This document shows positions 809 to 32,038 of a stretch of 57,675 nt of DNA, piece after piece. How positions within the stretch are numbered: position 1 is the stretch's first letter; every line of letters begins with the position of its first letter. The notes under the pieces were generated by a model. The model was not told the origin of the DNA and searched no databases. It saw only the letters and a list, made by a program, of their open reading frames with translations. Both the position numbers and the translations under genes were made by a program. Where the stretch lies: contig CBEUCJ010000006.1 of NCBI GenBank assembly GCA_965541615.1, positions 1-57,675 of the forward strand, read 5' to 3'. The DNA comes from an uncultured bacterium. GTDB taxonomy: Bacteria; Omnitrophota; Gorgyraeia; Duberdicusellales; CBEUCJ01.

Positions 809-837
809 GAGAAAAATTTTATAACTTTTCATTTGTA

Positions 838-5903: not shown

Positions 5904-5942
5904 TTAAATAGTAACTTATAATTAGTTTGTTTTTAAATTTTA

Positions 5943-8662: not shown

Positions 8663-8733
8663 GAATGTAAAATAAATCTTTACATCCAAAGAAAATTCCG
8701 ATATAATTTTTTGCAAGTAATTTTTTGATAAAG

Positions 8734-9927: not shown

Positions 9928-9950
9928 ACTATTTTAGGAGGAGGTAAGAT

Positions 9951-12129: not shown

Positions 12130-12158
12130 TTGACTTTAAAAATTATGTAGTATACAAT
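12130..12158 (+). promoter_or_regulatory. Putative sigma70-type promoter for the GGDEF / pilus-ATPase operon
   Basis: TTGACT (12130-12135), a 17-nt spacer, then TACAAT (12153-12158), ending 14 nt before ATG 12172. Confidence 0.4.
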
Positions 12159-12171
12159 TTAAGAAATAAAA

Positions 12172-15100
12172 ATGGAAGAAAAAGAAAATTTAAAAGAAAG
12201 TATTATTACTATAGACCCTCTTACTAAACTCTACACACGTTATTTTATTTATCATAATTTCCCAAAAATTCTTGAAGAAGCAAAGAATTTTGAAAAAAAG
12301 ATAGCAGTAGTTATGTTAGATATAGATAATTTTAAAAGTGTAAATGACACTTATGGTCATCTAAAAGGAGATGAAGTATTAAAAAAAGTAGCTGAAGTAT
12401 TAAAAAGGTCTGTAAGAGAAAAAGATATTTTAGTAAGATATGCAGGAGATGAATTTTTGGTGATTCTTAATGATGTAGATGAGAGAATAAGTAAAAATGT
12501 GGCTCAAAGAATAATAAAAGAGATAAGTAAAATCTCTATTGAAAAGATAAAAATCACTGTAAGTGCAGGTTTAGCTATATATCCTCAAGATGGTCAAACT
12601 CTTCAAGATTTACTCGATAAAGCAGATAAGGCTTTGTATCTTTCTAAAGAAAAAGGTAAAAACAGATTATCTTTAGCTCAAGAAGTCATCCAAGAGGCAA
12701 TAAGTATACAGGAAGCTTTAAAACTATTTCCTACTAAAAGATTTATAAATAGAACCCAACAATTAGAGTTTCTTAAAAAAAGACTCTCTGATACTTTGGG
12801 TGAAAAAATGTCTTTAGTTATAATTAAAGGAAAAGTTGGTATAGGAAAGACAAGACTTCTTAATGAATTTGAAAGATATGCTAAAGATTTACAGATAATA
12901 TCTTTAAAAAACATAGCTCAAGAAAGAAAAATGCTTCAGCCTTATTATACTCTTTCACAAGGATTAGAAGAATTTTTGCAAAACAATGAAGTTTTTTTAT
13001 CTGCATTAACTGCATCTTTACCACCAAAAGAAGTGCAAGCATTAGCTAAGTTATTACCTTCTTTTAAAAAACTCATAAAAGAAAGCCTTCAAGAAGAAAC
13101 AGAGGAAACCAGATTAAATATTTTTAAAGGCTTTAGAGATATATTCGTTCAATTCTCACAGTTTCAAGGACTTTTATTGTGTTTTGATGATGTTCAGTGG
13201 TTAGATGAAGCAACTCTTAGATTATTGAGTTATTTTATCGATAATGAATTTATTAGAAAGATAATGGTATGTTGCACTCTATCAGAAGAGGAACTAAAAG
13301 AGCATGCTCCTTTTAAAAAGTTTTTGAAATCACCTAAAAAGAATATAAATTTTGACATAATAGAATTACCACCTTTTGGATTAGAAGAGACCAAAGAAAT
13401 GATTTGCTCCATTTTTCCACAGATAACTGCTTCTGAAGAATTTTACAATTCTATATTTGAAATTACAGGAGGAAACCCTCTGTTTATAGAAGAGATGCTT
13501 AAATATCTAATAGAGAGTGGAGTAATTTTTTATAAAGATAAAAGATGGCAGATTCACAAGATTTCAAAAGAAGAAATTCCCTCTTCTTTAGAAGAAGTTT
13601 TAAAAAGAAGATTTAGGAAATTAGATCCTGAGACAAAGGAATTTTTAGCACAAGCAGTAGTTATTGGAAAAGATTTCCAGTTAGATTTTTTAAGGCACAT
13701 GGTAAAAAAAGATTTAGGTTTTCTTTTTGAATTAATAGATAGAGCTAAGAGAAGAGGTTTTATTGAGGCAAAAAAATTAAATACTTTTGATTTCTTAAAT
13801 CCTTTTTTACAAAAAGTTATTTATGAAGAGCTGAGCCCTTCTGAAAAGATATCTTTGCATAAGAAAATAACCCAAGCTATAGAAGAAGTCTATAAAAAAG
13901 AACCTCCTCCTCAAGACTTTTTGCAAGAGTTAACTTATCATTATGAAAAAATAGGAGATACTTCTAAATTGCACAAATATAAAACTCAGATAGAAAAGGA
14001 GATTTCAAAAATATTTGATCCAACTGAGATAACTTCTTATCTAGAAGAAATGACGACTGAAATTTCTACTGAAGAGACACCAGCTGAAGTGAAGATAAGA
14101 AAAATAGAAAAGAAAATAAAAGAAGAAGACTTTGAAAAGATAGCAGAATTCTTAAGATGGGTTTCAGCTGCTTTAAGAAATATTATTCTATATCCTGAAG
14201 GAAATCAGATTAGAGAATATTCTATCAAAAGAGCACATTCTGGCTTGATAGATATCTTTAATATTAATAAAGAGATTTCAAGTTTAACTTTTAATGAGGT
14301 AGAAGGAATACTTATCGTAAATGGTCATAGATTGCCTTCTCATTATGAAAAAGCTTTTTTTATTCAAAACTTTATTTCAACTTTGATAGAAAAAGAGATA
14401 AAAGGAGTCCAGTTTTTACCTGAATTAGAAGAAAAAGAATTAAGCGCATTTTTAGTTTTACTTTCTCAAAAAAGAGAAGATTTGAAAAAGAAAGGAGGTA
14501 TAGGTCAAATTTTGAAAGAAAAAGGAATAAAGAATATAAAAGTAGATACAGCTCGTTATGAGAGAGTGGCTACTCAACAGAGATTCCAGCCATTAGAAGA
14601 AAATATTATGAAATTTGCTCTTTTAGATATTCTTTCAGGAGAAAAAAAACAAAAGAGCGCAGAGACTTTAATTACATGGTTAAGTAAGTCTCCTCAAATC
14701 TTAGCTCAAAAACTTACTGAAATAGCAAGAGATTTTGTTCTAAAAAAATCAGGTAAAGTTGATTTTATTGAAGAGGCAAAGGTTGTTAGTGATTTTATTC
14801 AAAAGGTAGAAAAAATAGTTTCTGAAAGAGCTCCTCATTTTAAGGAAAGTTTAGTTAAGATGGTCTCTCATTTAGATAGTACTCTAAAAAGTTATTTAAT
14901 TTCTCAAAAAAGCTCTCCTTTACAAAAAGAAAAAGAAATGTTAGAGAAAATAGTAAATAACCTTTCAAATGAAGAGATAGTAGAGATGATAATCAATGCT
15001 TCAAGAGCAGGGAAAGATTCTCTTTTGCATATGCGAGAACTTTTTGAAAAGTTTACTTCATTAAAAGGAAGAAGAGAAGAGATAGCTTCTCTTTTGAAAA

Positions 15101-16173
15101 AGAGATTAAGTAAAATAGGATTAAGTGAAGGTGAAATTTCTTTTGTTATTCAAAAAGATTATAGCACATTAAGTTTAAAAGAAAAGGTAGATACCCTTTT
15201 AAAACTTCCACCTTCAGGATACTCTTCTTTGGGAATAGAAAATATAAGAGAACTTTTAAATAATTTGATAAAGAGTTCTCAAAAAGAAGCTTTAGAAAAA
15301 ATTATAGATAAATTCTTGTTTTATTTAAAACAAAGTGAATCTTCAGAAAAAGAAACTGTTTTCACAGTCTTAAACAACTTTTTAGAATCTACACCTTTAG
15401 AAGAGACACAAATAGACCCATATATAGCCAAAATAATCTCATCTTTAAAAGATGAAATATTAAATTTGGAATCTCCTTTTTATGAACACACACTTAAAAT
15501 TTTAGATTTAGTTATAAAATGGTGTTATAAAAGTGCTGTTACTTCTTTAAGCAAGGAAAGATACATAATCCATTTAAGATTTTCTTATCTTAATGAGTTA
15601 GTTGAATGTATTCACAAAGCTTTAAATAAAGAAAGCACTAATTTTAAAGTAGAAAGAAATAAAGAAAAATTAAGATTATTTGTTTTTAAACTTTTAGATA
15701 GTGATTTAGTAGAGACATTAATCTTTGAATTAGCCGATCCCTCTTTAGAACATACAGAAATAATTGAAAATATATTAGTTAAGCTTGGAGAACCTGCATT
15801 GAAAAAAATAATCTCTGTTATTGTATCTAAAACTGACTTTACTTTTGAAGGTTACATTTATCGTAAAAAAATAAGTTATGTTTTAAAAAAGATGGGAAAA
15901 AAAGCAGCTCAGGAACTAAAAAGAGCTTTGCTTTCTGAAAAAGAAATTCCTAAATTAATTCGTTTAATCGAGATAGTAGGTTTCTTACAAGACAAAGATT
16001 TTGTAGATGTCTTAGCTGAATTTAGCAAACACCCTGATTATGAAGTCAAAAAAACAGTTATTTCAGCTTTAGCAGAAATAGGAGGTTCTGAAGCTGAGAA
16101 GATTCTTTCTGAAATGAGCAGAAGTTCTGATGTGAGAATTAGTAGGTTAGCTGCAGAAAAGATTAAAAAGTGA
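12172..16173 (+). CDS. Multidomain signalling protein: GGDEF (AGDEF variant) diguanylate cyclase domain, AAA_16/STAND-type ATPase, long helical region, C-terminal HEAT repeats
   Basis: GGDEF domain in aa ~15-170, with the active-site motif RYAGDEF at nt 12442-12456 and the I-site-like REKD five residues upstream. Walker A GKVGIGKT (nt 12829-12852). Walker B-like LLLCFDDVQWLDEATLRLL. C-terminal HEAT-like repeats (PDYEVKKTVISALAEIGG..., SSDVRISRLAAEKI). Confidence 0.8.
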   Translation: MEEKENLKESIITIDPLTKLYTRYFIYHNFPKILEEAKNFEKKIAVVMLDIDNFKSVNDTYGHLKGDEVLKKVAEVLKRSVREKDILVRYAGDEFLVILNDVDERISKNVAQRIIKEISKISIEKIKITVSAGLAIYPQDGQTLQDLLDKADKALYLSKEKGKNRLSLAQEVIQEAISIQEALKLFPTKRFINRTQQLEFLKKRLSDTLGEKMSLVIIKGKVGIGKTRLLNEFERYAKDLQIISLKNIAQERKMLQPYYTLSQGLEEFLQNNEVFLSALTASLPPKEVQALAKLLPSFKKLIKESLQEETEETRLNIFKGFRDIFVQFSQFQGLLLCFDDVQWLDEATLRLLSYFIDNEFIRKIMVCCTLSEEELKEHAPFKKFLKSPKKNINFDIIELPPFGLEETKEMICSIFPQITASEEFYNSIFEITGGNPLFIEEMLKYLIESGVIFYKDKRWQIHKISKEEIPSSLEEVLKRRFRKLDPETKEFLAQAVVIGKDFQLDFLRHMVKKDLGFLFELIDRAKRRGFIEAKKLNTFDFLNPFLQKVIYEELSPSEKISLHKKITQAIEEVYKKEPPPQDFLQELTYHYEKIGDTSKLHKYKTQIEKEISKIFDPTEITSYLEEMTTEISTEETPAEVKIRKIEKKIKEEDFEKIAEFLRWVSAALRNIILYPEGNQIREYSIKRAHSGLIDIFNINKEISSLTFNEVEGILIVNGHRLPSHYEKAFFIQNFISTLIEKEIKGVQFLPELEEKELSAFLVLLSQKREDLKKKGGIGQILKEKGIKNIKVDTARYERVATQQRFQPLEENIMKFALLDILSGEKKQKSAETLITWLSKSPQILAQKLTEIARDFVLKKSGKVDFIEEAKVVSDFIQKVEKIVSERAPHFKESLVKMVSHLDSTLKSYLISQKSSPLQKEKEMLEKIVNNLSNEEIVEMIINASRAGKDSLLHMRELFEKFTSLKGRREEIASLLKKRLSKIGLSEGEISFVIQKDYSTLSLKEKVDTLLKLPPSGYSSLGIENIRELLNNLIKSSQKEALEKIIDKFLFYLKQSESSEKETVFTVLNNFLESTPLEETQIDPYIAKIISSLKDEILNLESPFYEHTLKILDLVIKWCYKSAVTSLSKERYIIHLRFSYLNELVECIHKALNKESTNFKVERNKEKLRLFVFKLLDSDLVETLIFELADPSLEHTEIIENILVKLGEPALKKIISVIVSKTDFTFEGYIYRKKISYVLKKMGKKAAQELKRALLSEKEIPKLIRLIEIVGFLQDKDFVDVLAEFSKHPDYEVKKTVISALAEIGGSEAEKILSEMSRSSDVRISRLAAEKIKK

Positions 16174-16598
16174 GAAAAAAATTAAAATTAGGTGAGATTT
16201 TGTTGGAAGCAACTTCTTTAACCAAAGATCAATTAAAAGAAGCTCTCTATCTTCAAGCAAAAGAAAATATCTCTAAACCTTTAGGTGAGATTTTGGTAGA
16301 AAAAGGATATGTAAGTAAAGAAGATGTGGAGTTAGCTTTAGGAATTCAAGAAGGATACCCTTTTATTTCGGTAAAAAATTATAATTTAATTCCAGATGTA
16401 GTTAAAAAGGTTCCCAAAGAAGTAGCTTTAAGATATTTTATTTTGCCTTTGGATTTAATAGATAATATAATGACAGTAGCTGTACCTTCTATTTCTGAAG
16501 AGATTTTAAATAAAATTGAGGAGTTAGGTTTTAAAGTTAGAATTTTTTTAGGTAGGAAAGAAGAAATAAAAGAAGCTTTAAAAAAGTACTTTGACTGA
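16170..16598 (+). CDS. Stand-alone T2SSE_N / MshEN-type domain protein (predicted c-di-GMP receptor)
   Basis: Residues 6-29 (KLGEILLEATSLTKDQLKEALYLQ) and 37-60 (PLGEILVEKGYVSKEDVELALGIQ) match the tandem 24-residue MshEN motif. The remainder resembles the GspE/PilB N1 domain. GTGA overlap with the GGDEF gene. Confidence 0.75.
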   Translation: MRKKLKLGEILLEATSLTKDQLKEALYLQAKENISKPLGEILVEKGYVSKEDVELALGIQEGYPFISVKNYNLIPDVVKKVPKEVALRYFILPLDLIDNIMTVAVPSISEEILNKIEELGFKVRIFLGRKEEIKEALKKYFD

Positions 16599-17784
16599 AA
16601 GATTTAAACAAACTTCAATAGTAGATCTTACTCACCATCTTCTTGTTGAAGGAGTCAATAAAAGAGCAAGTGATATTTTAATTGAACCTTTAGATGATGA
16701 GTTACAAATAAGGTTTCGTATAGATGGTGTGCTTTCTAAATTTGCATCTTTGCCTTCTGAAATGCATTCAAAAATAATTACCAGAATAAAAGTAATGGCA
16801 GGTTTAGATATTTCTGAAAAAAGATTACCTCAAGATGGTAGTTTTAAAATGAAATTTCCAGGAAAAGAAGTAGATTTCAGAGTCTCAGTAGTTCCTTCAA
16901 GATTAGGAGAAAGAGTGGTCTTAAGAGTCTTGGATAAAGGAAGGCTTATTTTAGATATTAATAAATTAGGTTTAGATCCTTATTCTTTAACTTCTCTTAA
17001 AGAGAGTTTATTAAGACCTTATGGAATAATTTTAATATGTGGTCCTACAGGTTCTGGGAAGACTACAACTTTATATGCTTCCATAAAATATATTGATTCT
17101 GTAGAAAAAAATATTGTAACAGTAGAAGACCCTGTAGAATACCAACTCTATGGTATAAATCAGGTTCAGATAAATGAAGAGATAGGCTTAACTTTTCCTG
17201 CAGTTTTACGTTCTATTTTAAGACAAGACCCAGATGTAATCCTGGTAGGTGAAATTAGAGATTCTGAAACTGCTGAAATTGCTGTAAGAGCTGCTTTAAC
17301 AGGACATTTGGTTTTAAGCACTCTTCATACGACTACAGCCACAGGTGGAGTTATCAGACTGATAAATATGGGAATAGAACCTTATTTAATAAGTTCATCT
17401 TGCCTTTTAATAGCTTCGCAAAATTTAGTCAGATTATTATGTCCAGATTGTAAAAAGCCTCAACCTCTTCCAAAAGTAATTTCAGTTCAATTAGAGCAAT
17501 ATGGATACAAAAAAGAAGAGATCCCAGAAATAATTTACACAGCTAAAGGTTGCGAGAAATGTAATAATACTGGTTACTTTGGTAGAAGAGCTATTATGGA
17601 AGCTCTGATGTTATCTCCTGAAATTAGAGAATTAATAGAAAAAAATGCTCCTGAAAGAGAAATCAGAAAGAAAGCAAGGATGCAAGGAATGAGGAGCTTG
17701 AGAGAAAGAGGATATGAACTCTTAATGAAAGGTTTGACTTCTTTAGAGGAGGTAATAAGAGTAACTTCTGCTCAAGAAGTTTAA
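16591..17784 (+). CDS. PilB/GspE-family secretion ATPase lacking the N-terminal (N1/MshEN) domain
   Basis: Walker A GPTGSGKTT, Asp box, Walker B (DPDVILVGEIRD), His box (TGHLVLSTLHT) and the tetracysteine motif CPDC...GCEKC, which is typical of PilB/GspE and not of PilT. TTG start overlaps the stop of the MshEN ORF by 8 nt. Confidence 0.85.
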   Translation: MTERFKQTSIVDLTHHLLVEGVNKRASDILIEPLDDELQIRFRIDGVLSKFASLPSEMHSKIITRIKVMAGLDISEKRLPQDGSFKMKFPGKEVDFRVSVVPSRLGERVVLRVLDKGRLILDINKLGLDPYSLTSLKESLLRPYGIILICGPTGSGKTTTLYASIKYIDSVEKNIVTVEDPVEYQLYGINQVQINEEIGLTFPAVLRSILRQDPDVILVGEIRDSETAEIAVRAALTGHLVLSTLHTTTATGGVIRLINMGIEPYLISSSCLLIASQNLVRLLCPDCKKPQPLPKVISVQLEQYGYKKEEIPEIIYTAKGCEKCNNTGYFGRRAIMEALMLSPEIRELIEKNAPEREIRKKARMQGMRSLRERGYELLMKGLTSLEEVIRVTSAQEV

Positions 17785-17797
17785 AATAGTTTTTAAG

Positions 17798-19390
17798 ATG
17801 GAAAAGCATTTTTCTAAAAAAGATGAACTAAATTATATGCTTGAGATTTCAGAGAAGCTAAATATTCCTTTTATAAGAATCTCTCAATATCAAATCCCCA
17901 AAGAATTACTCAATCTCATTCCAGAAAAAATAGCCCGCAATTATAAAGTTATTCCTGTAGCTAAATTCGGTCCAGTACTCACTTTAGCTATGGTAAATCC
18001 TCTCAACTTAATGATTTTAGATGAGTTGCGTTATTTAATAGGATTAGAGATAACCCCTGTAGTAAGCACTTCTTCAGAAATCTTGGAAGCAATAGAAATT
18101 TATTATAAGCCTTCTTTTGAGATGAGTATAGAGAAGTTAAAAGAAGAAAGGACAAAAGAAATAACCATTGAGAAGACAACAGCTGAAGAAGAAGAGTTAG
18201 ATATCTATAAACTTACAGAGATGAGTTCACAAGAAAAGGTAGTAAACACCCTCAATAATATTATCTTGGAAGCTTTGAAATCTAAAGCGAGTGACATTCA
18301 TATAGAACCCTATCAAGAACATATCAGAATCCGTTACAGAATAGATGGTGTTTTGACAGAAAAAATGACTCTTCCAAAAGATATGCAAGATGCACTTTTA
18401 GCCAGGATAAAAATAATGTCTAAATTAGATATTACTCAAAGGAAAATTCCCCAAGATGGCAGATTTACTATAAATTTTGAAGACAGAAACATAGATTTTA
18501 GAGTTTCAATTTTACCTACATACTTTGGAGAAAAAGGAGTCTTAAGGATTTTAGATAAAGGAAGAATGAAGTTAGATTTAAGAAGTTTAGGTTTTTCTGA
18601 GCGTGCTTTTGAAATATACAAAGAAGCTATCTTTTCTCCTTTTGGTATCATATTAATCACAGGTCCTACAGGTTCTGGAAAATCAACTACTCTGTACTCT
18701 ATGCTAAATGAGTTAAATACACCTGAAAAAAACATAGTTACAATTGAAGATCCAATAGAATACCATCTGAAAGGTATTGCTCAAATCCAGATAAAGCCAG
18801 AAATCGGTTTAGACTTTGCTCAATGTTTAAGGAGTGTTTTAAGACAATCTCCAGATGTGATTATGGTAGGTGAGATAAGAGACTTTGAGACAGCAGACAT
18901 TGCTATGAAATCTGCTCTAACAGGACATTTGGTTCTAACTACCCTTCACACAAATGATGCTCCATCAGCTATAACCAGATTGTTAGATATGGGAATAGAG
19001 CCTTTTTTGATAGCAGGTGCTTTAAGAATGGTTTCAGCTCAAAGATTGGTAAGAAAGTTATGTGATTACTGTAAAGAGAGTTATATCATAGATAAAAGGA
19101 GTTTAGAAAAATTTGGTATCTTTGTTGATAAAGAAGAAGTCGTTTTATACAGAGCTACTGGTTGTAATGAGTGTGATAGAGTAGGTTATAAAGGAAGAGA
19201 AGCTATAGTAGAAGCGTTTTTAGTAGATGATACTTTAAGAGAGATGATAATTCAGAGAGCCCCTCTCTTAGATATTAAAAAGTATCTGAAATCAACAGGA
19301 ATGCATACTTTACGTGAAGATGGTTTTCTGAAAGCTTTAAAAGGAGCTACTTCCTTAGAAGAAGTAATAAGAGTAACTGCCCAATTTTGA
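17798..19390 (+). CDS. pilB: Full-length PilB/GspE-family type IV pilus / type II secretion ATPase
   Basis: T2SSE_N-like N-domain without the MshEN 24-mer motifs. Walker A GPTGSGKST, DPDVIMVGEIRD, TGHLVLTTLHT, and CDYC...GCNEC. A GspE (T2SS) assignment cannot be excluded. Confidence 0.85.
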   Translation: MEKHFSKKDELNYMLEISEKLNIPFIRISQYQIPKELLNLIPEKIARNYKVIPVAKFGPVLTLAMVNPLNLMILDELRYLIGLEITPVVSTSSEILEAIEIYYKPSFEMSIEKLKEERTKEITIEKTTAEEEELDIYKLTEMSSQEKVVNTLNNIILEALKSKASDIHIEPYQEHIRIRYRIDGVLTEKMTLPKDMQDALLARIKIMSKLDITQRKIPQDGRFTINFEDRNIDFRVSILPTYFGEKGVLRILDKGRMKLDLRSLGFSERAFEIYKEAIFSPFGIILITGPTGSGKSTTLYSMLNELNTPEKNIVTIEDPIEYHLKGIAQIQIKPEIGLDFAQCLRSVLRQSPDVIMVGEIRDFETADIAMKSALTGHLVLTTLHTNDAPSAITRLLDMGIEPFLIAGALRMVSAQRLVRKLCDYCKESYIIDKRSLEKFGIFVDKEEVVLYRATGCNECDRVGYKGREAIVEAFLVDDTLREMIIQRAPLLDIKKYLKSTGMHTLREDGFLKALKGATSLEEVIRVTAQF

Positions 19391-19446
19391 ACCCCTTTCT
19401 TTTTATAGATTTTCTTTTTTTAAATATGGTATAATTTAAAGGAGGT

Positions 19447-21342: not shown

Positions 21343-21344
21343 AA

Positions 21345-21854: not shown

Positions 21855-21939
21855 AGAAGATCATTTAGATTTATATTTAAAGTCTACTTATCTGCAAAGA
21901 TTAAACTGGTTAGAAAAAGCTCATGAATTTGTTAAAAAG

Positions 21940-23637: not shown

Positions 23638-23647
23638 AAATAAAACC

Positions 23648-23805
23648 TTGGACACATCCGGAGTGTCCAAAGAACAAAGGTTGAGATGGGTGCCCAAAGA
23701 ACAAGATTGAGATTTGAGGAAATAAAGAAAGTTGTAAGTGAGAAACAAAAAAGGACAGTCCTTAAATGTTACACTTCTGGGGTGTCCAAAAAAACAAGGT
23801 TGAAA
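23648..23805. promoter_or_regulatory. Intergenic palindrome plus direct-repeat cluster upstream of, or overlapping, the start of paralog 3
   Basis: An 8-bp-stem palindrome TTGGACAC-atccgga-GTGTCCAA at 23648-23670. Three copies of GTG(T/C)CCAAA(G/A)AACAAG(G/A)TTGA(G/A)A at 23663-23686, 23690-23712 and 23782-23805. A further palindrome AAGGACAGTCCTT near 23749-23761. Confidence 0.4.
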
Positions 23806-25485: not shown

Positions 25486-25492
25486 TTATTAT
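25154..25492 (+). repeat. Repeat block B, copy 1 (3' end of paralog 3 plus 7 nt past the stop)
   Basis: 339 bp matching 26989-27327 at a constant offset of 1835. No mismatch seen by eye, and the encoded 111 aa are identical. Confidence 0.9.
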
Positions 25493-25522
25493 TTAAAATA
25501 AAATTTTTTATCCCAAACCATG

Positions 25523-25556
25523 TGGACACCTCCGGAGTGTCCAAGGATGTTGAAAG
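25523..25556. promoter_or_regulatory. Second copy of the GGACAC/GTGTCC palindrome element, between paralogs 3 and 4
   Basis: TGGACAC-ctccgga-GTGTCCA at 25523-25543, followed by a shortened version of the CCAAGG..GTTGAAAG motif (25537-25556). Confidence 0.4.
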
Positions 25557-25580
25557 TTTTTAAAACTGAGAAGAAGAATA

Positions 25581-27320
25581 ATGATTACAAAAATAAAGAA
25601 AAATAAACTGAAAATAGGAAATATTTTATTCATTATTTTTATTTTCTGTCCCTCTCTTTCTTTCTCCCAACAAGACAACCTCTGTATAAAAGGCACCCTT
25701 CAAACTCAAACTCTAACTATAAAAGGTTCAGATACTCTGCCTGCTTCTCCTACAAAAGGTGAAATCTACTACAAAACAGATGAAGATACAATCTACTTTT
25801 ATGATGGCTCACAATGGCAGAAAATAGGAGAAGGTCAAGACAAAACAGTAGCTTCTCAAATAGTAAGAACCCAAAACTCAAGATATGATGCAGACAAAAC
25901 CTGTGATGGAACAGATGATCAACAAGAAATTCAACAGGCAATAAATGATTTGGGAAATGATAAAGGTGCAGTGTATTTATTAGAGGGAGAGTATTTGGTG
26001 AGTAATGCGATACAGTTAGAATACGGAGCTGGTTTTACTTTTACCCCTGATAGAATAGGAGATAGTTATAAGTCTATAATAGGCACAGGAGCTGGGAGTA
26101 TCTTAAAAGTAAATGCAGATGCAGATTTTTGTGTTTTTAAACTTTATTACGGAAGAAAAGGATGCGCTCTTATGAGTAATTTTCAAATCGATGGAAATAA
26201 AGCTTCAGTAACAGGTAAGAACTGTGGAATTAGTCTTGGGGGTTGGTATCAAGTTGGGTTTAAATACTCTATAGTTGATAATGTATGGATAAAAGATCTC
26301 ACCTCTTGGGGGATTACTCTTGTCAATAGGTTAAGTATTTATACTGATAATTATATTTTATCTGGAATTGATTGTAAAGATGCCCTTAGATTTGGCTCGG
26401 GTAGTAAAGGATTGAGTATATTTTCCAACAATTTTATTACCCCTCAGATTCATTTCTATGGATATGGAGGAGGTAGTATGCAGTGTGATATAATTTCTTT
26501 AAATATTTTTCCTTCTGGCAATATTGATCTTTATGGTTATTGTGCATATTGTAGTCGTCACATTCTTTTAGGAAATATTGTACCTGGAGGTAATATTGTA
26601 ACTAGAGGTATTAATCCTCGTTGCAATCATTTAGTTGTGTGTAGCAATCTCCTTAGTGGAGGAGGAGGAGGAATTAATTACTCAGGTGGGAAAAGCATGA
26701 TTTCAAATAATTTAATCAAAGAAAGTAGTTTCCCTGCTATTAACTATAATGGAGCTGAGTTAGTTTTTAGTAACATGATTTCTGAAAGTGCTACAGGCGG
26801 CTTTTGGGCAGACTGCGGAATATACGTAACAGCTCCGTCTCTTATTTCCTCAAATTATATTTATGATTCTGTTTGTAATGGTGGTTATTACTATGGGATT
26901 ATTATCTGGCATCCATTTTTAAAAAATATTTATATTGTAGGTAATTATATTCAAGGAAATTATACACATCCTATTTATGATAGACCTTCTTCCACCTTCT
27001 ACACAGACAAACTCAAACTCACTCTTGAAGGAAAACCCCTTGATATCTCTAATTCAACTTATACTCTGGATATGACCACAAACCCAAGAACTTACTTTCA
27101 ATTAAACCCTCAAGTTGATACTACTCTTTCTCTACAAGATGGAAAATCACCTGGAGACCTACTCATCTTAGAAAATACAAGTTCTTCTTATACTATTACT
27201 ATCTCTGAATCAAGAAATATAGAATTAGAAAAAAACACTTTAACTTTAGGAGAAAATGACACCTTAATGCTCTTATGGGATGGAACAAAATGGATACAAA
27301 CAGCTTATGCTGATAATTGA
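25581..27320 (+). CDS. Secreted beta-helix repeat protein, paralog 4 of 4 (mosaic partner of paralog 3)
   Basis: Signal peptide (...FCPSLSFS/QQDN). Ends match paralog 3 apart from one synonymous base. The core is divergent, with PbH1-like turns and a GGGGGINYSGG stretch. C-terminus ...LMLLWDGTKWIQTAYADN. Confidence 0.75.
   Translation: MITKIKKNKLKIGNILFIIFIFCPSLSFSQQDNLCIKGTLQTQTLTIKGSDTLPASPTKGEIYYKTDEDTIYFYDGSQWQKIGEGQDKTVASQIVRTQNSRYDADKTCDGTDDQQEIQQAINDLGNDKGAVYLLEGEYLVSNAIQLEYGAGFTFTPDRIGDSYKSIIGTGAGSILKVNADADFCVFKLYYGRKGCALMSNFQIDGNKASVTGKNCGISLGGWYQVGFKYSIVDNVWIKDLTSWGITLVNRLSIYTDNYILSGIDCKDALRFGSGSKGLSIFSNNFITPQIHFYGYGGGSMQCDIISLNIFPSGNIDLYGYCAYCSRHILLGNIVPGGNIVTRGINPRCNHLVVCSNLLSGGGGGINYSGGKSMISNNLIKESSFPAINYNGAELVFSNMISESATGGFWADCGIYVTAPSLISSNYIYDSVCNGGYYYGIIIWHPFLKNIYIVGNYIQGNYTHPIYDRPSSTFYTDKLKLTLEGKPLDISNSTYTLDMTTNPRTYFQLNPQVDTTLSLQDGKSPGDLLILENTSSSYTITISESRNIELEKNTLTLGENDTLMLLWDGTKWIQTAYADN
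25641..25994 (+). repeat. Repeat block A, copy 2 (5' end of paralog 4)
   Basis: See copy 1. Identity stops abruptly after GAGGGAGAGTAT. Confidence 0.9.
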
Positions 27321-27327
27321 TTACCAT
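26989..27327 (+). repeat. Repeat block B, copy 2 (3' end of paralog 4)
   Basis: See copy 1. Identity starts at CTTCCACCTTCTACACAGAC. Confidence 0.9.
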
Positions 27328-27379
27328 TGTTTAAAATAAAAATAACTGATAGAATAGGTTAACTAACTAAAAATTTAAA

Positions 27380-27757
27380 ATGCAAGCTGATTTTTTAAAA
27401 GAAAGAGCAGAAAAATTCCTTAAGAACGCAAAAGATTTGTTTAATAAAGAAGAGTATGATTTATCTGCTTTTAATTTAGAACAAGCCTGCCAACTTTTTT
27501 TAAAATACTATATCTTTCTTAAAATAGGTGATTTCCCTAAAACTCATTATTTAAAAAGATTAATAAGAGAAGTAGGTAAAGTCTATGAAAAAGAAGAAGA
27601 TGTAGAAAAATTAATTGAAGAAAATATAAGTGTGGTCTCTAACCTTGAAGACGCTTACATTGGAGCAAGGTATCTACCTTATATTTTTGAGAAAAAACAG
27701 GTAGAAAATATGATGGTATTTGTAGATAAGTTATTAAATTTTCTTAAAAAACTATGA
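27380..27757 (+). CDS. HEPN domain protein (PF05168-like)
   Basis: YDLSAFNLEQACQLFLKYYI..., PKTHYLKRLIREV and EDAYIGARY match the classic small HEPN signature. ATGA overlap with the downstream nucleotidyltransferase gene. Confidence 0.75.
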   Translation: MQADFLKERAEKFLKNAKDLFNKEEYDLSAFNLEQACQLFLKYYIFLKIGDFPKTHYLKRLIREVGKVYEKEEDVEKLIEENISVVSNLEDAYIGARYLPYIFEKKQVENMMVFVDKLLNFLKKL

Positions 27758-28101
27758 AGACTCTTACAGATATCTTATTAGAAGAAGCAAAAGAAAATAA
27801 AAAGTATTTCTGTGATTATTTAAAATATTTAAAAATCGTTAAAGAAGAGGTAAATAAGATTTTAAAAGGAGCCAAAGTATATGTTTTTGGTTCAGTAGTA
27901 AAAGGTAATTTCAATTTTGCAAGTGATATAGATGTGTTGATCGTATGTGAGAATTTAGATCCTTCAAAAAGAACTTTGATTAAAACTCTCATCTATAAAA
28001 AAATAGGTTTCTTTTCTCCTTTTGAAATCCATGTAATCACAAAAGAAGAGTATCTTTGTTGGTATAAAAATTTCATAAAAGAAGATGTAAAAGAGATTTA
28101 A
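27754..28101 (+). CDS. Minimal nucleotidyltransferase (MNT, NTP_transf_2), partner of the HEPN protein
   Basis: VYVFGSVVKGNFNFASDIDVLIV matches the GS-x(n)-SD.D Pol-beta-type nucleotidyltransferase motif. Confidence 0.8.
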   Translation: MKTLTDILLEEAKENKKYFCDYLKYLKIVKEEVNKILKGAKVYVFGSVVKGNFNFASDIDVLIVCENLDPSKRTLIKTLIYKKIGFFSPFEIHVITKEEYLCWYKNFIKEDVKEI

Positions 28102-28138
28102 TACACTAAAATCATTTCTAATTCTCCCAAAAATAATA

Positions 28139-28147
28139 TGGTATAAT
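28139..28147 (+). promoter_or_regulatory. Extended -10 promoter element (TGGTATAAT) upstream of pilC
   Basis: TGnTATAAT at 28139-28147, followed by RBS AAGGAG (28156-28161) and ATG 28167. The same 16-mer ATATGGTATAATTTAA also occurs at 19424-19439. Confidence 0.4.
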
Positions 28148-28166
28148 TTAATGAGAAGGAGAAAAG

Positions 28167-29366
28167 ATGCCAGTATTTGTTTATAAAGCAAAAGATTCTG
28201 AAGGAAAGACCACCAAATCTATAATCGAAGCTCCAAGTTATCAGGAAGCTCTATCAAAGTTAAGAGAAGAATTTTCTGCAGTTTTACTTTTAAAAGAGAC
28301 AAAAAGAAAATTTGCAAAGAGAATAAAGAAAGTAAGTTTAGATAGTTTAGCTCAATTCTCAAGAGAGTTAGCTACAATGGTAGGAGCAGGCACTCCTTTA
28401 GTAAAAAGTTTAACGATATTAGGAAATCAATTTAAAGAAAAGACTTTATCAGAAATTGCCCATGATTTAGCAAAATATATTGAAGCAGGAAACAGTTTTG
28501 CAGATGGGTTAAAAAAATACCCCAAAGTTTTCTCTCCTCTCTATATAAATACTGTAGTAGCTGGTGAAACCAGTGGAACTTTAAAAGATGTCTTAGAAAG
28601 ATTAGCTAATTATTTGGAGAATACATCTATTCTTTTAAGAAAAATAAAGACTGCCATGATCTATCCAACAGCAGTAGTTATCGTAGCAATAATTATTACT
28701 TCTTTTTTAGTCTTTAAAATCATACCTGGATTCAAAGAAATATTTGAGAATTTAGGAGGAGAGTTACCTTTACCTACAAGAATAGTTATAAAAGTAAGTG
28801 ATACTTTTAAGAAATATTTCTTTTTCATTGCAGGATTTTTTATTATAAGTTTTTTAATCTTTATTAGACTTATTAACACTTCTCGGGGCAGATTTTTATT
28901 CGATAAATTTAAATTAAAAATCCCTGTATTAGGTCCTCTTTTTCAAAAAGTGGCCATCTCGCGTTTTAGTAGAACTTTAGGGATACTTTTAAGGAGTGGT
29001 GTGCCTATTTTAGAAGCATTAAAAATTGTAAGTAAAGCTGTGGGAAACAAAGTATTAGAAGAATCTATTTTAAAGACTTTAGAAGAGGTAAGAAGAGGAA
29101 AGACTTTAGCTCCTAATTTAGAGAAAAGTAAAATATTTCCTCCAATGGTAATAGAGATGATAAGTGTAGGTGAAGAGAGTGGAGAGTTAGAGAATATGTT
29201 AGAGAATATAGCTGATAGCTATGATACTCAAGTAGATATAGCCACAAACAATCTGGTCTCTCTTATAGAGCCTTTTATCATCATTTTCTTAGGAGTCGTA
29301 ATTGGAGGAATAGTAGTTAGTATGTTTTTACCTATCTTAAAGATCACTCAACTCTTAGGAAGATGA
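28167..29366 (+). CDS. pilC: PilC/GspF-family inner-membrane platform protein
   Basis: 399 aa with two T2SSF-type repeats (SRELATMVGAGTPLVKSL... and SRTLGILLRSGVPILEAL...) and three TM regions. GspF cannot be excluded. Confidence 0.88.
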   Translation: MPVFVYKAKDSEGKTTKSIIEAPSYQEALSKLREEFSAVLLLKETKRKFAKRIKKVSLDSLAQFSRELATMVGAGTPLVKSLTILGNQFKEKTLSEIAHDLAKYIEAGNSFADGLKKYPKVFSPLYINTVVAGETSGTLKDVLERLANYLENTSILLRKIKTAMIYPTAVVIVAIIITSFLVFKIIPGFKEIFENLGGELPLPTRIVIKVSDTFKKYFFFIAGFFIISFLIFIRLINTSRGRFLFDKFKLKIPVLGPLFQKVAISRFSRTLGILLRSGVPILEALKIVSKAVGNKVLEESILKTLEEVRRGKTLAPNLEKSKIFPPMVIEMISVGEESGELENMLENIADSYDTQVDIATNNLVSLIEPFIIIFLGVVIGGIVVSMFLPILKITQLLGR

Positions 29367-30712
29367 AAATTTTAATAAAAAAAATAAAGAGTTTTACTTT
29401 AATGGAACTGTTAATAGCAAGCACAATTTTGATCTTAATATTAACAGCATTCTTAGGGACTTTTAATTCTCTTTTAAACACAGCTCAGCAAGCTAAATAC
29501 ATCTCTTTAGCATTAAACAGATGTCTGCAAGAAGCTTCAGAAATGCAAAAAAAAGGATTTTTAGAGAGTTTGTTTTCTAATTGTTCTTTAGGAGGAAGTT
29601 TTGATATCTATGATGAAGCAAACAATCTTATTGGAAAAGGAAATTTTACTCTTAAAGATAGATACGACCTTTATAGAGTAGAGAATGCTACTAATACTTC
29701 AGCTTTTCCTACTGGGCGTGAAAGAATTTCTTGTGTAGTCTTTGATAACAAAATATGGGTAATAGGAGGTTTTGATGGGACTTACTTAGATGATGTATGT
29801 TATTCTGAAGATGGAGTAAACTGGAACTGCACTTACTCTTTGCCATCTCCCAGAGCTTCACATACTTCAGTAGTCTTTGATAACAAAATATGGGTAATAG
29901 GAGGTTATGATGGAACAAATTACTTAAAAGAAGTCTGTTACTCTTCAAATGGTGCTAATTGGACATGCAAAGATTCTTTACCATCTGGTAGAATCTTACA
30001 CACATCTGTGGTCTTTAATAACAAAATCTGGGTAATAGGAGGTTATGATGGAACAAATTACTTAGATGATGTATGTTATTCTGAAGACGGAGTAAACTGG
30101 AACTGCACTTACTCTTTGCCATCTCCTAGGGCTTTGCATACATCTGTAGTCTTTGATGATAAAATATGGGTAATAGCTGGTTTTAATGGAACGAGCTACT
30201 CAGATGATGTTATCTATTCTACAGATGGTTCTAGTTGGAATACAGCTACCACTAATGCTACAGGTATTCAGAGAGGTTGCCATGTAAGTGTGGTTTATGA
30301 TGGTAAGATGTGGATTTTAGGAGGAAGAGATAAATATGGCACCCCTTATAATGATGTCTGGCATTCAAAGAATGGTAATTGCTGGATAAAAGCAACAGAT
30401 AATGCAAATTGGTCTAAAAGATATCTTCATGCAGGAACAGTCTTTAAAGATAGAATTTGGATACTGGGTGGTTATGGTAATGGTTATAAAAAAGATGTCT
30501 GGTCTTCTACAGGTTATGGAAGATTATTTGAAGCCAAAATCACAGCTTCTTTTAAATTACCAAACGGAAGGATAATAGGAGAAGATAAAAATCTAAATGG
30601 AATTTTAGATGCAGGTGAAGATTTAAACGGAAATGGAGAATTAGATTCTCCAGTTTTTTTAAGGAGCTTTATTTCAAAGAAAAAAAGAGGCTTATATTTA
30701 GGAGAGCAATAG
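29363..30712 (+). CDS. Pseudopilin-like protein fused to a six-bladed Kelch/Asp-box-like beta-propeller and a C-terminal Asp/Asn-rich (Ca-binding-like) segment
   Basis: N-terminal class III signal KS/FTLMELLIASTILILILTAF. Six ~46-aa blades of the form VVFDNKIWVIGG.DGT...DV.YS.DG.NW. Asp/Asn-rich DKNLNGILDAGEDLNGNGELD at nt 30584-30647. ATGA overlap with pilC. Confidence 0.75.
   Translation: MKILIKKIKSFTLMELLIASTILILILTAFLGTFNSLLNTAQQAKYISLALNRCLQEASEMQKKGFLESLFSNCSLGGSFDIYDEANNLIGKGNFTLKDRYDLYRVENATNTSAFPTGRERISCVVFDNKIWVIGGFDGTYLDDVCYSEDGVNWNCTYSLPSPRASHTSVVFDNKIWVIGGYDGTNYLKEVCYSSNGANWTCKDSLPSGRILHTSVVFNNKIWVIGGYDGTNYLDDVCYSEDGVNWNCTYSLPSPRALHTSVVFDDKIWVIAGFNGTSYSDDVIYSTDGSSWNTATTNATGIQRGCHVSVVYDGKMWILGGRDKYGTPYNDVWHSKNGNCWIKATDNANWSKRYLHAGTVFKDRIWILGGYGNGYKKDVWSSTGYGRLFEAKITASFKLPNGRIIGEDKNLNGILDAGEDLNGNGELDSPVFLRSFISKKKRGLYLGEQ
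29782..29850 (+). repeat. Intragenic DNA repeat in the propeller gene, copy 1
   Basis: 69 bp matching 30058-30126 (offset 276 nt, equal to two blades) with one mismatch (29812 T versus 30088 C). Confidence 0.85.
30058..30126 (+). repeat. Intragenic DNA repeat in the propeller gene, copy 2
   Basis: See copy 1. Confidence 0.85.
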
Positions 30713-30752
30713 TCTTGAATATTTTAGATTAATAGATTATTTTTAAAGTGAG

Positions 30753-31286
30753 ATGAAAAATAGAAAATCTTTTACTTTAATGGAGATGATGGTGGTTCTA
30801 AGTGTGTTTGCAGTAATTTCAGGTATAACTTTTACTGCCTTAAAACTTAATGATACTTATAGAGATACAGTATTAACTCAGCTTGAGTTATACAGAAAAG
30901 CTAAAAAAATCCATGATACCATTACAAAAGAACTTTCTCTTTCTCAAATCAATAGAATAAACATTACAGATTCTAATCCAGATGTCCTTACTTTTCAGAT
31001 ACCTCTTTTAAGTCAAATAGACGATAACTATACTATTCCTTGGGGAGCAGAAGAAAATGAAGGATATTATATAAGATACCAATTAATAGGAGATGAATTA
31101 AAAAGAGAAATCTTAGATTCTACATATTCACTTGTCTCTCAACAGACAGTTACTAAAGGTGTAGCTGACTTACAATTTTCTTCAGATTCAGAGAGCATAA
31201 CCATTAATTTTACACTTTCTAGGACTAATATTGAAGGAAGGGTTATAAATTTTACTTCTCAATTTAAAGTTTACTTAGCAAATTGA
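30753..31286 (+). CDS. Minor pseudopilin (prepilin-type N-terminal cleavage/methylation domain protein)
   Basis: MKNRKS/FTLMEMMVVLSVFAVISG class III signal with Glu at +5. Small beta-rich body, GspJ/PilW-like in size. Confidence 0.75.
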   Translation: MKNRKSFTLMEMMVVLSVFAVISGITFTALKLNDTYRDTVLTQLELYRKAKKIHDTITKELSLSQINRINITDSNPDVLTFQIPLLSQIDDNYTIPWGAEENEGYYIRYQLIGDELKREILDSTYSLVSQQTVTKGVADLQFSSDSESITINFTLSRTNIEGRVINFTSQFKVYLAN

Positions 31287-32038
31287 TTATGAAAGTTAAA
31301 GATAAAAAAGGAATAGTAATGTTAAGTGTACTTTTGGTAGTGACTATGGTTTCAGTTTATTTAACAGGTTATGTTATCTGGACTATTTATGATCAAAGAC
31401 ATTTACTTATAGAAAGGAAAATAGCTCTTGCTAAAAGAATAGCAAGAGCAGGTTTAGAAAGAGCAAAAGCTGAATTGTATTTAGATTCAAATTGGATAGA
31501 TGGAGAAGTAAACGGAAAAAATTTAACCGATAATTTAGGAAATCCTATTACAGGACCAGATCCTAACGATCCTGATGAATGGTATTTTTTATATAAAAAT
31601 GTTTCTTTAGGTGAAGGAAATTACACTGTAATGATAGATTACCTTCAAAAACCACGGAGTTGCACTTCAGGATGTAGTTTTTATAAACGCAGATTACATT
31701 TACGTTCTATAGGTAGAGTAGAAAATTTTGTAAAGACTTTAGAAGAATTTATCTGGGAAGAACCTATTAAAAACTTAAATCAAAATACTTATTATGAAGA
31801 GCTCCAAACAGCTATAAATGAAGCTCAGGATAATAATACCCTTGCTATTACAGATGCAGTCTTAAATGAATTATCTATAAATACAAACTCTACTTTAGCT
31901 CAAAATTTTTCTATAAAAGGCTGTTATGATCCTTCATTCCAAACAAGGAATTGTCAAAATTATCTTTCCTATATAGAAGGGAATGTGACTATTTCAGGTA
32001 ATGTTCAAGTAGAGATCGGAGGAATAACTGTAAGATAG
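31283..32038 (+). CDS. PilX/GspK-like minor pseudopilin candidate
   Basis: N-terminal KKG/IVMLSVLLVVTMVSVYLTGYVIW hydrophobic helix without Glu5, as seen in PilX/GspK-type proteins. TTGA overlap with the upstream pseudopilin gene. The assignment rests on position and N-terminus only. Confidence 0.5.
   Translation: MIMKVKDKKGIVMLSVLLVVTMVSVYLTGYVIWTIYDQRHLLIERKIALAKRIARAGLERAKAELYLDSNWIDGEVNGKNLTDNLGNPITGPDPNDPDEWYFLYKNVSLGEGNYTVMIDYLQKPRSCTSGCSFYKRRLHLRSIGRVENFVKTLEEFIWEEPIKNLNQNTYYEELQTAINEAQDNNTLAITDAVLNELSINTNSTLAQNFSIKGCYDPSFQTRNCQNYLSYIEGNVTISGNVQVEIGGITVR

Follow-up and report, generated by a model that had tools for sequence, protein, structure and literature searches.

Why should a bacterium keep an array of exported, tailspike-like proteins inside the operon of a pilus motor? 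The question arises in the Omnitrophota, a phylum of widespread, uncultivated and mostly ultra-small bacteria that are suspected of living on other cells. Here, we analysed 57,675 nucleotides (nt) of DNA from an uncultured member of this phylum (contig CBEUCJ010000006.1 of GenBank assembly GCA_965541615.1, positions 1 to 57,675), called the window in the following. The window has a G+C content of ~29% and nearly every gene on the + strand; at 12172-32038, 16 consecutive open reading frames (ORFs) follow each other on this strand, either overlapping or no more than 95 nt apart. They include genes for a GGDEF-type protein with STAND and HEAT modules (GGDEF-STAND), a stand-alone MshEN protein, two PilB-type ATPases (PilB and the N-terminally shorter PilBc), four right-handed beta-helix (BH) proteins, the platform protein PilC, a pilin carrying a Kelch propeller and two further minor pilins (Table 1). 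The gene order and domains given in a preliminary description of this DNA agree with the ORFs, coordinates and Pfam assignments obtained here. We propose that the locus probably specifies a machine related to type IV pili (T4P) and type II secretion systems (T2SS), which is controlled by cyclic di-GMP (c-di-GMP) and equipped with an accessory propeller pilin at its tip and with Sec-exported, tailspike-like proteins that bind or degrade glycans. The region itself would likely encode the fibre-tip components of this machine and its core in the cytoplasm and inner membrane; the machine is conserved within a clade of Omnitrophota.

Our main argument rests on the linkage of the BH genes to the machine. 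In a reverse search, a profile of 16 BH proteins (A1) was scanned against metagenome contigs, the window proteins were mapped onto the retrieved loci, and these were sorted by presence of the family-specific C-terminal domain, with the linkage count limited to loci with at least 8 kb of sequence. All eight such loci were linked to machine genes; BH arrays at unrelated loci without pilus genes, which the preliminary description had named as a possible counter-case, were thus not encountered. Matches to PilB, PilC, the Kelch pilin or GGDEF-STAND lie beside the BH genes in L020, L021, L023, L024, L025, L035 and L041 (locus numbers are ours), and in L042 three complete BH genes, preceded by a partial ORF, are directly followed by PilN/O/P-like, secretin-like and PilM-like genes. 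On shorter contigs (L019, L031, L033, L046, L053), PilB, PilC, the Kelch pilin or the 251-amino-acid (aa) pilin adjoin the BH genes, and the separately retrieved, BH-anchored locus L181/L182 likewise carries pilus genes. The other ~50 loci of the scan encode generic beta-helix proteins that lack the C-terminal domain, and pilus genes are absent from their surroundings. Depending on the lineage, the array stands after PilB (window, L016, L017, L035, L181), after PilC (L041), after the pilins (L015), divergently beside the pilins (L011, L014, L024) or beside a PilM/PilO/secretin block (L025, L042). With at least five positions and no departure from the cluster, the linkage has outlasted repeated rearrangement. 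Common ancestry explains the presence of BH genes, but not a linkage that is kept in this way, and for this reason we regard the BH proteins as probably tied to the machine in function. The long distance between pilB and pilC, described previously as unusual, indeed measures 8776 nt from the pilB stop (19390) to the pilC start (28167), but it reflects only one of the array positions, and both genes are adjacent in other relatives. BH copies number one to four, possibly five, per locus, and members of the family were found in no phylum but Omnitrophota. In every locus showing both regions (at least seven), the Kelch pilin is accompanied by BH genes, and both are absent from L018, L178 and L179.

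The conservation of the neighbourhood, which the preliminary description had suggested to check, extends to the whole core. This set of GGDEF-STAND-HEAT, stand-alone MshEN, PilBc, PilB, PilC, Kelch pilin and two minor pilins recurs in rearranged orders in L011-L017, L023-L025, L035, L041 and L181/L182, at PilB identities of 47-82% (orthology of every core gene was quantified by a blastp table). Compared with its truncated counterparts in L011, L014, L015, L016, L017, L023, L035 and L041, PilBc shows 56-85% identity, and PilC is 43-50% identical in L011, L014, L015, L035 and L041. In all relatives, the ortholog of the 177-aa pilin is encoded after or beside the Kelch pilin, and orthologs of the 251-aa protein (27-42% identity) always stand next to the 177-aa pilin; by position and N-terminus, the 251-aa protein is a candidate GspK/PilX-like pilin. 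The closest relative is L016, a 56-kb NCBI contig with the same upstream synteny (GGDEF-STAND 68%, PilB 82% identical), which like L017 has its BH array placed as in the window; L010, from a near-identical strain, has the order HEPN-PilC-Kelch-pilin-pilin-dcw in common with the window. In L011-L014, representing two lineages (Kelch identity 39-46%), GGDEF-STAND, MshEN, PilBc, PilB and PilC are adjacent, and the opposite strand carries the Kelch pilin and two pilins, followed by a BH/Phage_depo_C array. L015, from an Omnitrophota metagenome-assembled genome (MAG), holds the whole set collinearly, with pilB next to pilC and a single BH gene. GGDEF-STAND was not seen in L035 or L181/L182, where a PilZ gene lies upstream of MshEN instead. 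L181/L182 is a 17-gene one-strand operon that runs from PilZ, MshEN, PilBc and PilB over three BH genes, PilC, the Kelch pilin and two pilins to PilN-like, PilO, PilP-like, secretin, an unassigned 349-aa protein and PilM. L018, L178 and L179 (GGDEF-STAND identity 26-29%) retain GGDEF-STAND, the stand-alone MshEN, two PilBs, PilC and pilins, and have PilM, PilO, secretin and a TPR protein in addition. As PilM_2, PilO, secretin and PilN/PilP-like genes are thus part of the orthologous operons of L018, L178, L179 and L181/L182, the machine is of the complete diderm type in this clade. Pfam matches to GspC, GspL, GspM or GspG were found neither in the window nor in its relatives, which have PilM_2 and PilO instead and a weak T2SSB match. 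Unannotated proteins of 800-860 aa follow the minor pilins in L018 (20250-24080) and L178 (17012-19594) and may be alternative tip or cargo proteins.

Named homologs of the Kelch pilin, GGDEF-STAND and BH proteins come nearly all from MAGs of Candidatus Omnitrophota/Omnitrophica, the exceptions being a few GGDEF-STAND matches in Planctomycetota and Thermodesulfobacteriota at ~60% coverage. A PilB search of the GTDB species representatives returned no close relative, only generic PilBs of 40-49% identity from unrelated phyla, and an exact sequence look-up of the window's Kelch pilin gave no record.

Table 1 Features of the locus in the window, with the matches or motifs on which each assignment is based.
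Feature	Position	Strand	Basis
Promoter-like site TTGACT-17-TACAAT, within the 65-nt gap 5' of the first gene	12130-12158	+	10/12 consensus match
GGDEF(AGDEF)-STAND(AAA_16)-HEAT protein, 1333 aa	12172-16173	+	Pfam GGDEF 8.7e-44, AAA_16 4.9e-15, HEAT_2 4.6e-8
Stand-alone MshEN protein, 142 aa	16170-16598	+	Pfam MshEN only, 1.3e-10
PilBc, PilB/GspE-type ATPase core without N-terminal MshEN, 397 aa	16591-17784	+	T2SSE 1e-132, full profile
PilB, full-length ATPase, 530 aa	17798-19390	+	MshEN 1e-19, T2SSE 8e-134
BH1, right-handed beta-helix protein, 631 aa	19447-21342	+	Beta_helix and NosD matches
Nucleotidyltransferase, 169 aa, passenger between BH1 and BH2	21345-21854	+	weak DUF6036/AbiEii in Pfam and PADLOC
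BH2, beta-helix protein, 600 aa	21835-23637	+	Phage_depo_C 1.3e-14, Beta_helix 4e-9
BH3, beta-helix paralog, 599 aa	23686-25485	+	Phage_depo_C
BH4, beta-helix paralog, 579 aa	25581-27320	+	Phage_depo_C
HEPN protein, toxin-antitoxin-like passenger	27380-27757	+	HEPN 6.8e-27
MNT-type nucleotidyltransferase, HEPN partner, passenger	27754-28101	+	NTP_transf_2 3.7e-12
PilC/GspF platform protein	28167-29366	+	T2SSF 1e-62, two repeats
Minor pilin with six-blade Kelch propeller, 449 aa	29363-30712	+	Kelch 4e-46; class III signal motif KS/FTLMELL
Minor pseudopilin, 177 aa	30753-31286	+	N_methyl 3.6e-7
GspK/PilX-like minor pseudopilin candidate, 251 aa	31283-32038	+	no Pfam match; hydrophobic N-terminus, no Glu5

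How might such a machine be controlled? At the motif level, GGDEF-STAND and the MshEN protein are supported as a putative writer/reader pair for c-di-GMP. The GGDEF domain of the window protein has an AGDEF motif, an RxxD I-site (REKD) five residues upstream and intact DxDxFK...ND...GH residues, and a Walker A motif (GKVGIGKT) at residue 219 together with the C-terminal HEAT_2 match provides the P-loop NTPase and repeat sensor typical of STAND proteins. The family comprises more than 100 clusters of proteins of ~1330-1390 aa; among 113 full-length members, AGDEF was found in 109, the RxxD I-site in 83 and Walker A in 102, and AGDEF is thus a conserved family trait and not a sign of decay. A function as antiphage STAND protein was discarded, given that PADLOC yielded no match and that the gene is conserved beside MshEN and PilB. 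The published MshEN consensus consists of two tandem 24-residue motifs, RLGxx(L/V/I)(L/V/I)xxG(L/V/I)(L/V/I)xxxxLxxxLxxQ, separated by a short spacer (PMC5013675). In the window protein, they occupy residues 6-29 and 37-60 with a spacer of 7 residues versus 5 in the consensus, and motif 2 (PLGEILVEKGYVSKEDVELALGIQ) fits the relaxed pattern of the same authors (PMC5013675); the orthologs in L018 and L041 have canonical motifs. Among the related proteins searched, the c-di-GMP-binding motifs occur in the stand-alone MshEN proteins only, often in both copies, and never in PilB or PilBc: the N-domain of PilB has the MshEN fold without the motifs, both in the window and in every ortholog. A stand-alone MshEN gene was detected in every related locus in which the region is visible, always after GGDEF-STAND where the latter is present, and in the window it overlaps the PilBc gene by 8 nt. 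That MshEN and PilBc are a single PilB split by a frameshift was rejected because the two-gene layout with the 8-nt overlap recurs in relatives, and it is also disfavoured by distant loci, in which a stand-alone MshEN follows GGDEF-STAND and neither PilB is truncated. Walker A, Walker B, the His box and the zinc-binding cysteines are preserved in PilB as well as in PilBc (the latter with Walker A GPTGSGKTT and a CxxC...CxxC zinc motif).

At the other end of the machine, the Kelch pilin offers a candidate binding surface. Its AlphaFold2 (AF2) model comprises a long N-terminal helix (residues 13-63), two strands (78-99), the propeller (110-381; predicted local distance difference test (pLDDT) score >90) and two further strands (388-438) by which a small sheet is completed, with the propeller modelled at high and the pilin part at low confidence. 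Since pilin strands flank the propeller on both sides, it is predicted to be inserted within the pilin fold, and the modelled protein combines the N-terminal pilin module and the extra functional module that characterise modular type IV pilins. An inserted alpha-domain is described for GspK in the text of a survey of such pilins (PMC8179133), the same text containing no mention of a Kelch pilin. Full-length homologs of the Kelch pilin start with the canonical GFTLVEL; position -1 is Gly in most orthologs, Ala in one lineage and Ser in the window and a close strain, Ser being unusual for substrates of prepilin peptidase. The number of Kelch blades varies among homologs. In the window, the blades correspond to a tandem repeat of 138 nt (29734-30210; 3.5 copies, 76% match), and in a 93-98% identical strain (L010, 2087-3160) the pilin is 92 aa shorter, equalling two blades fewer, which is either real variation or an assembly collapse. 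Within the conserved C-terminal stretch, residues 408-428 (30584-30646) form two tandem DxNxNGxxD loops (EDKNLNGILDAGEDLNGNGELD), of which D, G and E are invariant in ten homologs; these loops resemble EF-hand-like calcium sites and may bind calcium. An independent case of a beta-helix on a pilin was observed in L180 (8001-9416, protein P0316), where a prepilin N_methyl segment is fused directly to NosD/beta-helix in a protein of 471 aa; judged by the neighbours FemAB, SepF and DivIVA, this contig may originate from a Patescibacteria-like organism.

The BH proteins share a common plan with conserved ends and a variable middle. Each of BH1-BH4 begins with a Sec-type N-terminal hydrophobic leader (read by eye), which is followed by a short beta-hairpin module (G-x-hydrophobic-Y/F ... 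Y-x-Y/W-D-G-x-x-W) of weak, sub-threshold similarity to DUF2793, a strongly conserved helix start (CDGTDDQxEIQQAI ... GGAVYLLEGTYN), the variable helix, a conserved linker (YTQKEKxTLE) and a C-terminal beta-sandwich that Pfam assigns to Phage_depo_C (BH2-4, 1e-10 to 1e-14); Beta_helix matches were obtained for BH1 and BH2 and a NosD match for BH1. Among 42 members, mean pairwise identity is 59% in the helix start, 44% in the C-domain and 36% in the centre, where only an Asn ladder, Gly and Ile are conserved. BH1 has orthologs of 51-61% identity in L011, L014 and L016, and BH2 is 64% identical to L013 821-2632. The BH2 frame opens within the 3'-terminal part of the nucleotidyltransferase gene, and a hydrophilic extension of ~45 aa (21835-21970; KEDHLDLYLKSTYLQRLNWLEKAHEFVKKM), kept in L013 and L016, precedes its signal peptide; this extension may be translated or may stem from another small gene that was fused to BH2. 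By sequence, the closest solved relatives are AlgE4/AlgE6 epimerase modules (1e-16), followed by AlgG, NosD, a GH87 glucanase and PL6. The AF2 model, predicted with the use of database hits (pLDDT 81.6), found its best Foldseek matches in AlgE4/AlgE6 and alginate epimerase/lyase, and also matched the tailspikes of Sf6, CBA120 TSP3 and Det7, Geobacillus virus E2 ORF18, RbmB, the K1 capsule lyase and many predicted phage tail fibres and depolymerases. The fold class predicted by the model, a beta-helix body with a C-terminal beta-sandwich, is secure. An origin of the array from a prophage or tailocin was rejected: phage structural genes are lacking, PHROG matches are weak and local, and 2.9 million viral contigs contained no full-length BH relative, the matches covering the generic helix only (approximately residues 100-450).

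Variation between close strains is concentrated in the array. BH3 and BH4 are 100% identical over approximately the first 150 and the last 110 residues and ~30% identical in between, and the direct repeats in the DNA (at least 300 nt; 25154-25453 and 26989-27288) are 100% identical. In two near-identical strains, BH3 is absent or replaced: in L029, BH2 is directly followed by a BH4-like gene, and in L038 a single BH3/4-type gene, whose centre is of a third type, precedes a 299-aa ORF and then HEPN. Recombination between the direct repeats would produce array contractions of this type. Furthermore, a 755-nt segment with the nucleotidyltransferase gene and the 5' end of BH2 (21334-22088) is 92% identical in nucleotide sequence to L011 5776-6530, compared with ~65% for the core genes, indicating that co-occurring lineages have recently exchanged a small cassette laterally (both stem from the same sample series). 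The 169-aa nucleotidyltransferase shares 93% amino-acid identity with L011/L013 and is absent from most relatives, and conservation of HEPN is limited to near-identical strains (L010, L038) and does not extend to the core clade. Both the nucleotidyltransferase gene and the HEPN/MNT pair, which the preliminary description had listed in the gene order, are toxin-antitoxin-like passengers and not conserved members of the system. HEPN and MNT are adjacent and overlap by 4 nt, as in HEPN-MNT pairs, and in near-identical strain L010 (479-622), MNT is cut to 47 aa, which suggests decay of the pair. Arrays of different lineages hold different toxin-antitoxin-like, four-helix-bundle and IS200 genes (HEPN/MNT, DUF6036/DUF6922, DUF2283/DUF4258, 23S_rRNA_IVP, Y1_Tnp), which are likewise passengers and not machine parts. 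The 23S_rRNA_IVP (Avd-like four-helix-bundle) and IS200-type Y1 transposase genes were seen in arrays of relatives at L011 3766-4155, L013 227-616, L016 21324-22214 and L011 621-1499. Two specialised mechanisms of diversification were rejected, namely a diversity-generating retroelement (no reverse-transcriptase match among the window ORFs scanned; BH3/BH4 ends identical, no adenine-biased mismatches) and invertible or shufflon-type switching (the inverted repeats found are short, AT-rich and no more frequent than by chance).

How could these components act together? The preliminary description had hypothesised a c-di-GMP-gated pilus or T2SS-like machine, and co-conservation, BH linkage and MshEN motifs all support this idea. 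We suggest that the GGDEF(AGDEF)-STAND-HEAT protein would sense a cue and make or bind c-di-GMP, which the small MshEN protein would read and pass on to the two PilB-type ATPases, one of them without an N-domain of its own, thereby gating fibre assembly on PilC. The fibre tip would be built from three minor pilins, two of them small and one displaying the Kelch propeller as a binding surface. The BH proteins, exported by Sec, could then either be machine cargo that is pushed through the secretin in T2SS fashion or act as extracellular partners. Their targets, which they would either bind or cleave, would be variable extracellular polysaccharides, the likeliest site being the surface or matrix of a host or prey cell. 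Surfaces of partner cells are the most attractive target because the arrays evolve in a tailspike-like manner and because Omnitrophota are suspected of a host-dependent life (PMC10066038; bioRxiv 10.1101/2023.11.21.568195). A bolder version of the proposal, which we consider quite unlikely, holds that the Kelch propeller at the tip docks the conserved BH ends, so that a parasitic or predatory nanobacterium would carry interchangeable, laterally exchanged, tailspike-like depolymerases on a pilus as a phage-style, swappable host-range device, which would be switched by the dedicated c-di-GMP writer/reader pair and would serve to recognise partner cells and breach their glycan coat.

Several points weigh against the proposed machine or parts of it. 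The window contains no PilT, secretin, PilMNO, prepilin peptidase or major pilin, as had been noted before: Pfam scans of the flanking ORFs gave no PilT, secretin, PilMNO or prepilin peptidase, and a six-frame motif scan of the whole window found two class III signal motifs only and no major pilin. PilT and the prepilin peptidase PilD were also absent from every related locus examined. Both prepilin motifs of the window (29390 and 30768; KS/FTLME with Glu5 present) have Ser instead of Gly at -1. AGDEF is non-canonical, which makes cyclase activity uncertain, that is, plausible but unproven. Active as well as inactive AGDEF enzymes have been reported: an active one is known from V. cholerae; in one title and abstract, the AGDEF of NbdA is called degenerate. 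MshEN motif 1 (KLGEILLEATSLTKDQLKEALYLQ) deviates at positions 10-11, with T-S in place of G-hydrophobic. In the BH centre, no acidic or basic residue is conserved across the family, so that catalysis is not evidenced and the proteins may only bind, although each BH sub-family may have a catalytic site of its own. The co-occurrence of Kelch pilin and BH genes could stem from a single gain in one clade instead of functional dependence, and T2SS cargo is not recognisable from sequence.

If the machine is real, does it necessarily serve contact with other cells? The alternative that survives best, which we still regard as unlikely, is a nutritional one, in which a T2SS-like exporter releases the BH proteins as depolymerases of environmental polysaccharides, the products being used via neighbouring sugar genes, without any host or prey. 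The flank 5' of the locus fits this idea: besides a coiled-coil protein, it encodes LacI, ROK, GH2_C/TPR and GH72-like proteins as well as a sugar ABC transporter (a solute-binding protein and two ABC permeases). The same upstream neighbours exist in L016, and GH2_C, ROK and LacI in L179. Absence of PilT from all loci also suits an exporter, as does the precedent of the Out and Pul systems, since T2SS classically export beta-helix pectate lyases and frequently have cargo genes beside their operons. However, the sugar-use neighbours are missing from most BH-bearing relatives (L011/L014, L015, L017, L025, L035, L041), L179 has sugar genes and no BH genes, PilM and PilO are present instead of GspC, GspL and GspM, and cassette-type strain variation combined with a tailspike-like architecture would be unusual for bulk foraging enzymes. 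Improbable in our view is a self-directed function, by which the BH proteins would act in the periplasm or on the cell's own surface and trim its exopolysaccharide or capsule for fibre passage or display in the manner of AlgG/AlgL. It agrees with the mannuronan C5-epimerases AlgE4/AlgE6 and AlgG being the closest solved structures by sequence and fold, and with Sec signal peptides guaranteeing export to the periplasm only, but the region of the AlgE4 catalytic motif (YGFDPH) is not conserved in the BH consensus alignment, polysaccharide synthesis genes were found in none of the loci examined, and multi-copy arrays with centres swapped between near-identical strains fit a variable external target better. 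Finally, that array and passengers are a recombination hot spot or variable island merely located near a pilus operon, as the accumulation of selfish toxin-antitoxin-like and IS passengers and the laterally exchanged nucleotidyltransferase/BH2 segment might suggest, is very improbable in view of a linkage seen in every locus with enough sequence, over at least five insertion positions and down to 47% PilB identity, of BH genes that, in several loci, are closely spaced and co-oriented with the essential machine genes on either side, and of a family found only in Omnitrophota.

For the c-di-GMP-controlled machine favoured here, a promoter-like site directly 5' of GGDEF-STAND had been pointed out in the preliminary description. 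The 10/12 match by itself carries no weight, because a scan of the window gives fewer consensus-like sites than shuffled sequence (62 vs 87 +/- 10). In L016, the 68%-identity relative, the -35 box and the spacer are invariant, the -10 box reads TAGAAT and the rest of the intergenic region has diverged; this conservation lends modest support to a promoter at 12130. An Rfam scan of the whole window yielded no family reaching threshold, so riboswitch control is not indicated. Upstream, the flank of GH2_C/TPR, ROK, coiled-coil and LacI genes spans 65-12106 in the window and 1-9928 in L016, is partly present in L179 (83-2410 and 20188-23644; GGDEF-STAND identity only 27%) and is missing from most other relatives. 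On the minus strand, three overlapping ORFs at 7353-8716, including fragments of an IS630/IS481-type helix-turn-helix transposase, interrupt the + strand sugar-utilisation block, and the equivalent region of L016 has no transposase insertion. Downstream, the locus is followed by the start of the dcw cluster (mraZ, rsmH, ftsL, a penicillin-binding protein gene, murE/F, mraY, murD, ftsW ... ftsQ, ftsA). Right after ftsA at the dcw end, an AddAB-like pair is encoded at 47725-53639, made up of a 1025-aa helicase of the UvrD type and a 946-aa PD-(D/E)XK nuclease protein.

Taken as a candidate apparatus by which Omnitrophota recognise or attack partner cells, the cluster is concrete, conserved and testable. 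It presents a new regulatory layout for PilB motors, with a separate MshEN protein, a phylum-wide GGDEF(AGDEF)-STAND-HEAT partner and two ATPase paralogs, and a strain-variable BH set whose evolution looks like that of phage receptor-binding proteins. The BH family might help to mark host range in metagenomes and might provide new glycan-active proteins. Precedents are known for MshEN control of PilB-type ATPases, modular pilins, adjacency of T2SS cargo genes, and Omnitrophota T2SS/T4P-like loci with PilZ, GGDEF and glycoside hydrolases. For the combination, regarded as undescribed before, we likewise found no published description in the searchable literature, which covers few subscription journals; this applies to the AGDEF-STAND-HEAT and stand-alone MshEN pair, the truncated second PilB, the Kelch-inserted pilin and the embedded tailspike-like arrays. 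The giant-gene loci described in the same phylum also have T2SS/T4P-like genes, PilZ, GGDEF, glycoside hydrolases and sugar ABC transporters, which their authors read as means of attack on prey cell walls (bioRxiv 10.1101/2023.11.21.568195, 10.64898/2026.06.07.730766). In contrast to the present locus, they are described with gspD/E/F and rcpC (Tad-like) genes and giant proteins, and neither preprint mentions GGDEF-STAND, a stand-alone MshEN, a Kelch pilin or beta-helix arrays.

How, then, does the machine compare with known systems? With the type IVa pilus of Pseudomonas and Myxococcus it shares the PilB-type ATPase, the PilC platform, minor pilins with class III signal motifs (with Ser at -1 in the window), PilM, PilO, secretin and PilN/PilP-like genes (in the orthologous operons of relatives, not in the window) and a beta-propeller presented with minor pilins, as in PilY1. 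It differs in that the propeller is a Kelch fold inserted in a pilin and not a separate PilY1, that PilT is lacking from all loci, that one of two PilB paralogs has no N-domain, and that the operon contains an exported beta-helix array and the cluster no major pilin. Similar to the T2SS, for example Out of Dickeya with its pectate lyases or Pul of Klebsiella with pullulanase, there is a GspE/GspF-like motor and platform, a pseudopilin tip set including a GspK-like member with an inserted domain, a secretin in relatives, no retraction ATPase and a group of Sec-exported beta-helix proteins resembling polysaccharide enzymes that are encoded alongside; unlike in the T2SS, PilM and PilO replace GspC, GspL and GspM, a GspG-like major pseudopilin was not seen, and the candidate cargo genes form a variable multi-copy array with tailspike-like C-domains. 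The machine is thus not a clean member of either class. Its proposed control resembles that of MshE, PilB2 and PilF (PMC5013675, PMC11731258) in the tandem 24-residue MshEN motifs (of which motif 1 deviates in the window) beside a PilB-type ATPase with a GGDEF gene alongside, but here the motif-bearing MshEN is a separate 142-aa protein, neither ATPase has the motifs, and the partner is a 1333-aa GGDEF-STAND-HEAT fusion with a family-wide AGDEF. Modular type IV pilins such as PilB with a vWA and PilC with a lectin module in S. sanguinis, as portrayed in the survey text (PMC8179133), likewise unite a pilin module with an extra binding module expected to be tip-exposed; their module is appended by a linker, whereas the Kelch propeller is inserted inside the pilin fold in the fashion of GspK. 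With phage tailspikes and capsule depolymerases, the BH proteins have in common the right-handed beta-helix, the Phage_depo_C beta-sandwich at the C-terminus, conserved ends around an exchangeable centre, paralogs standing side by side and lateral exchange, but a Sec signal takes the place of the N-terminal virion-anchor domain, and the genes reside in a chromosomal pilus operon.

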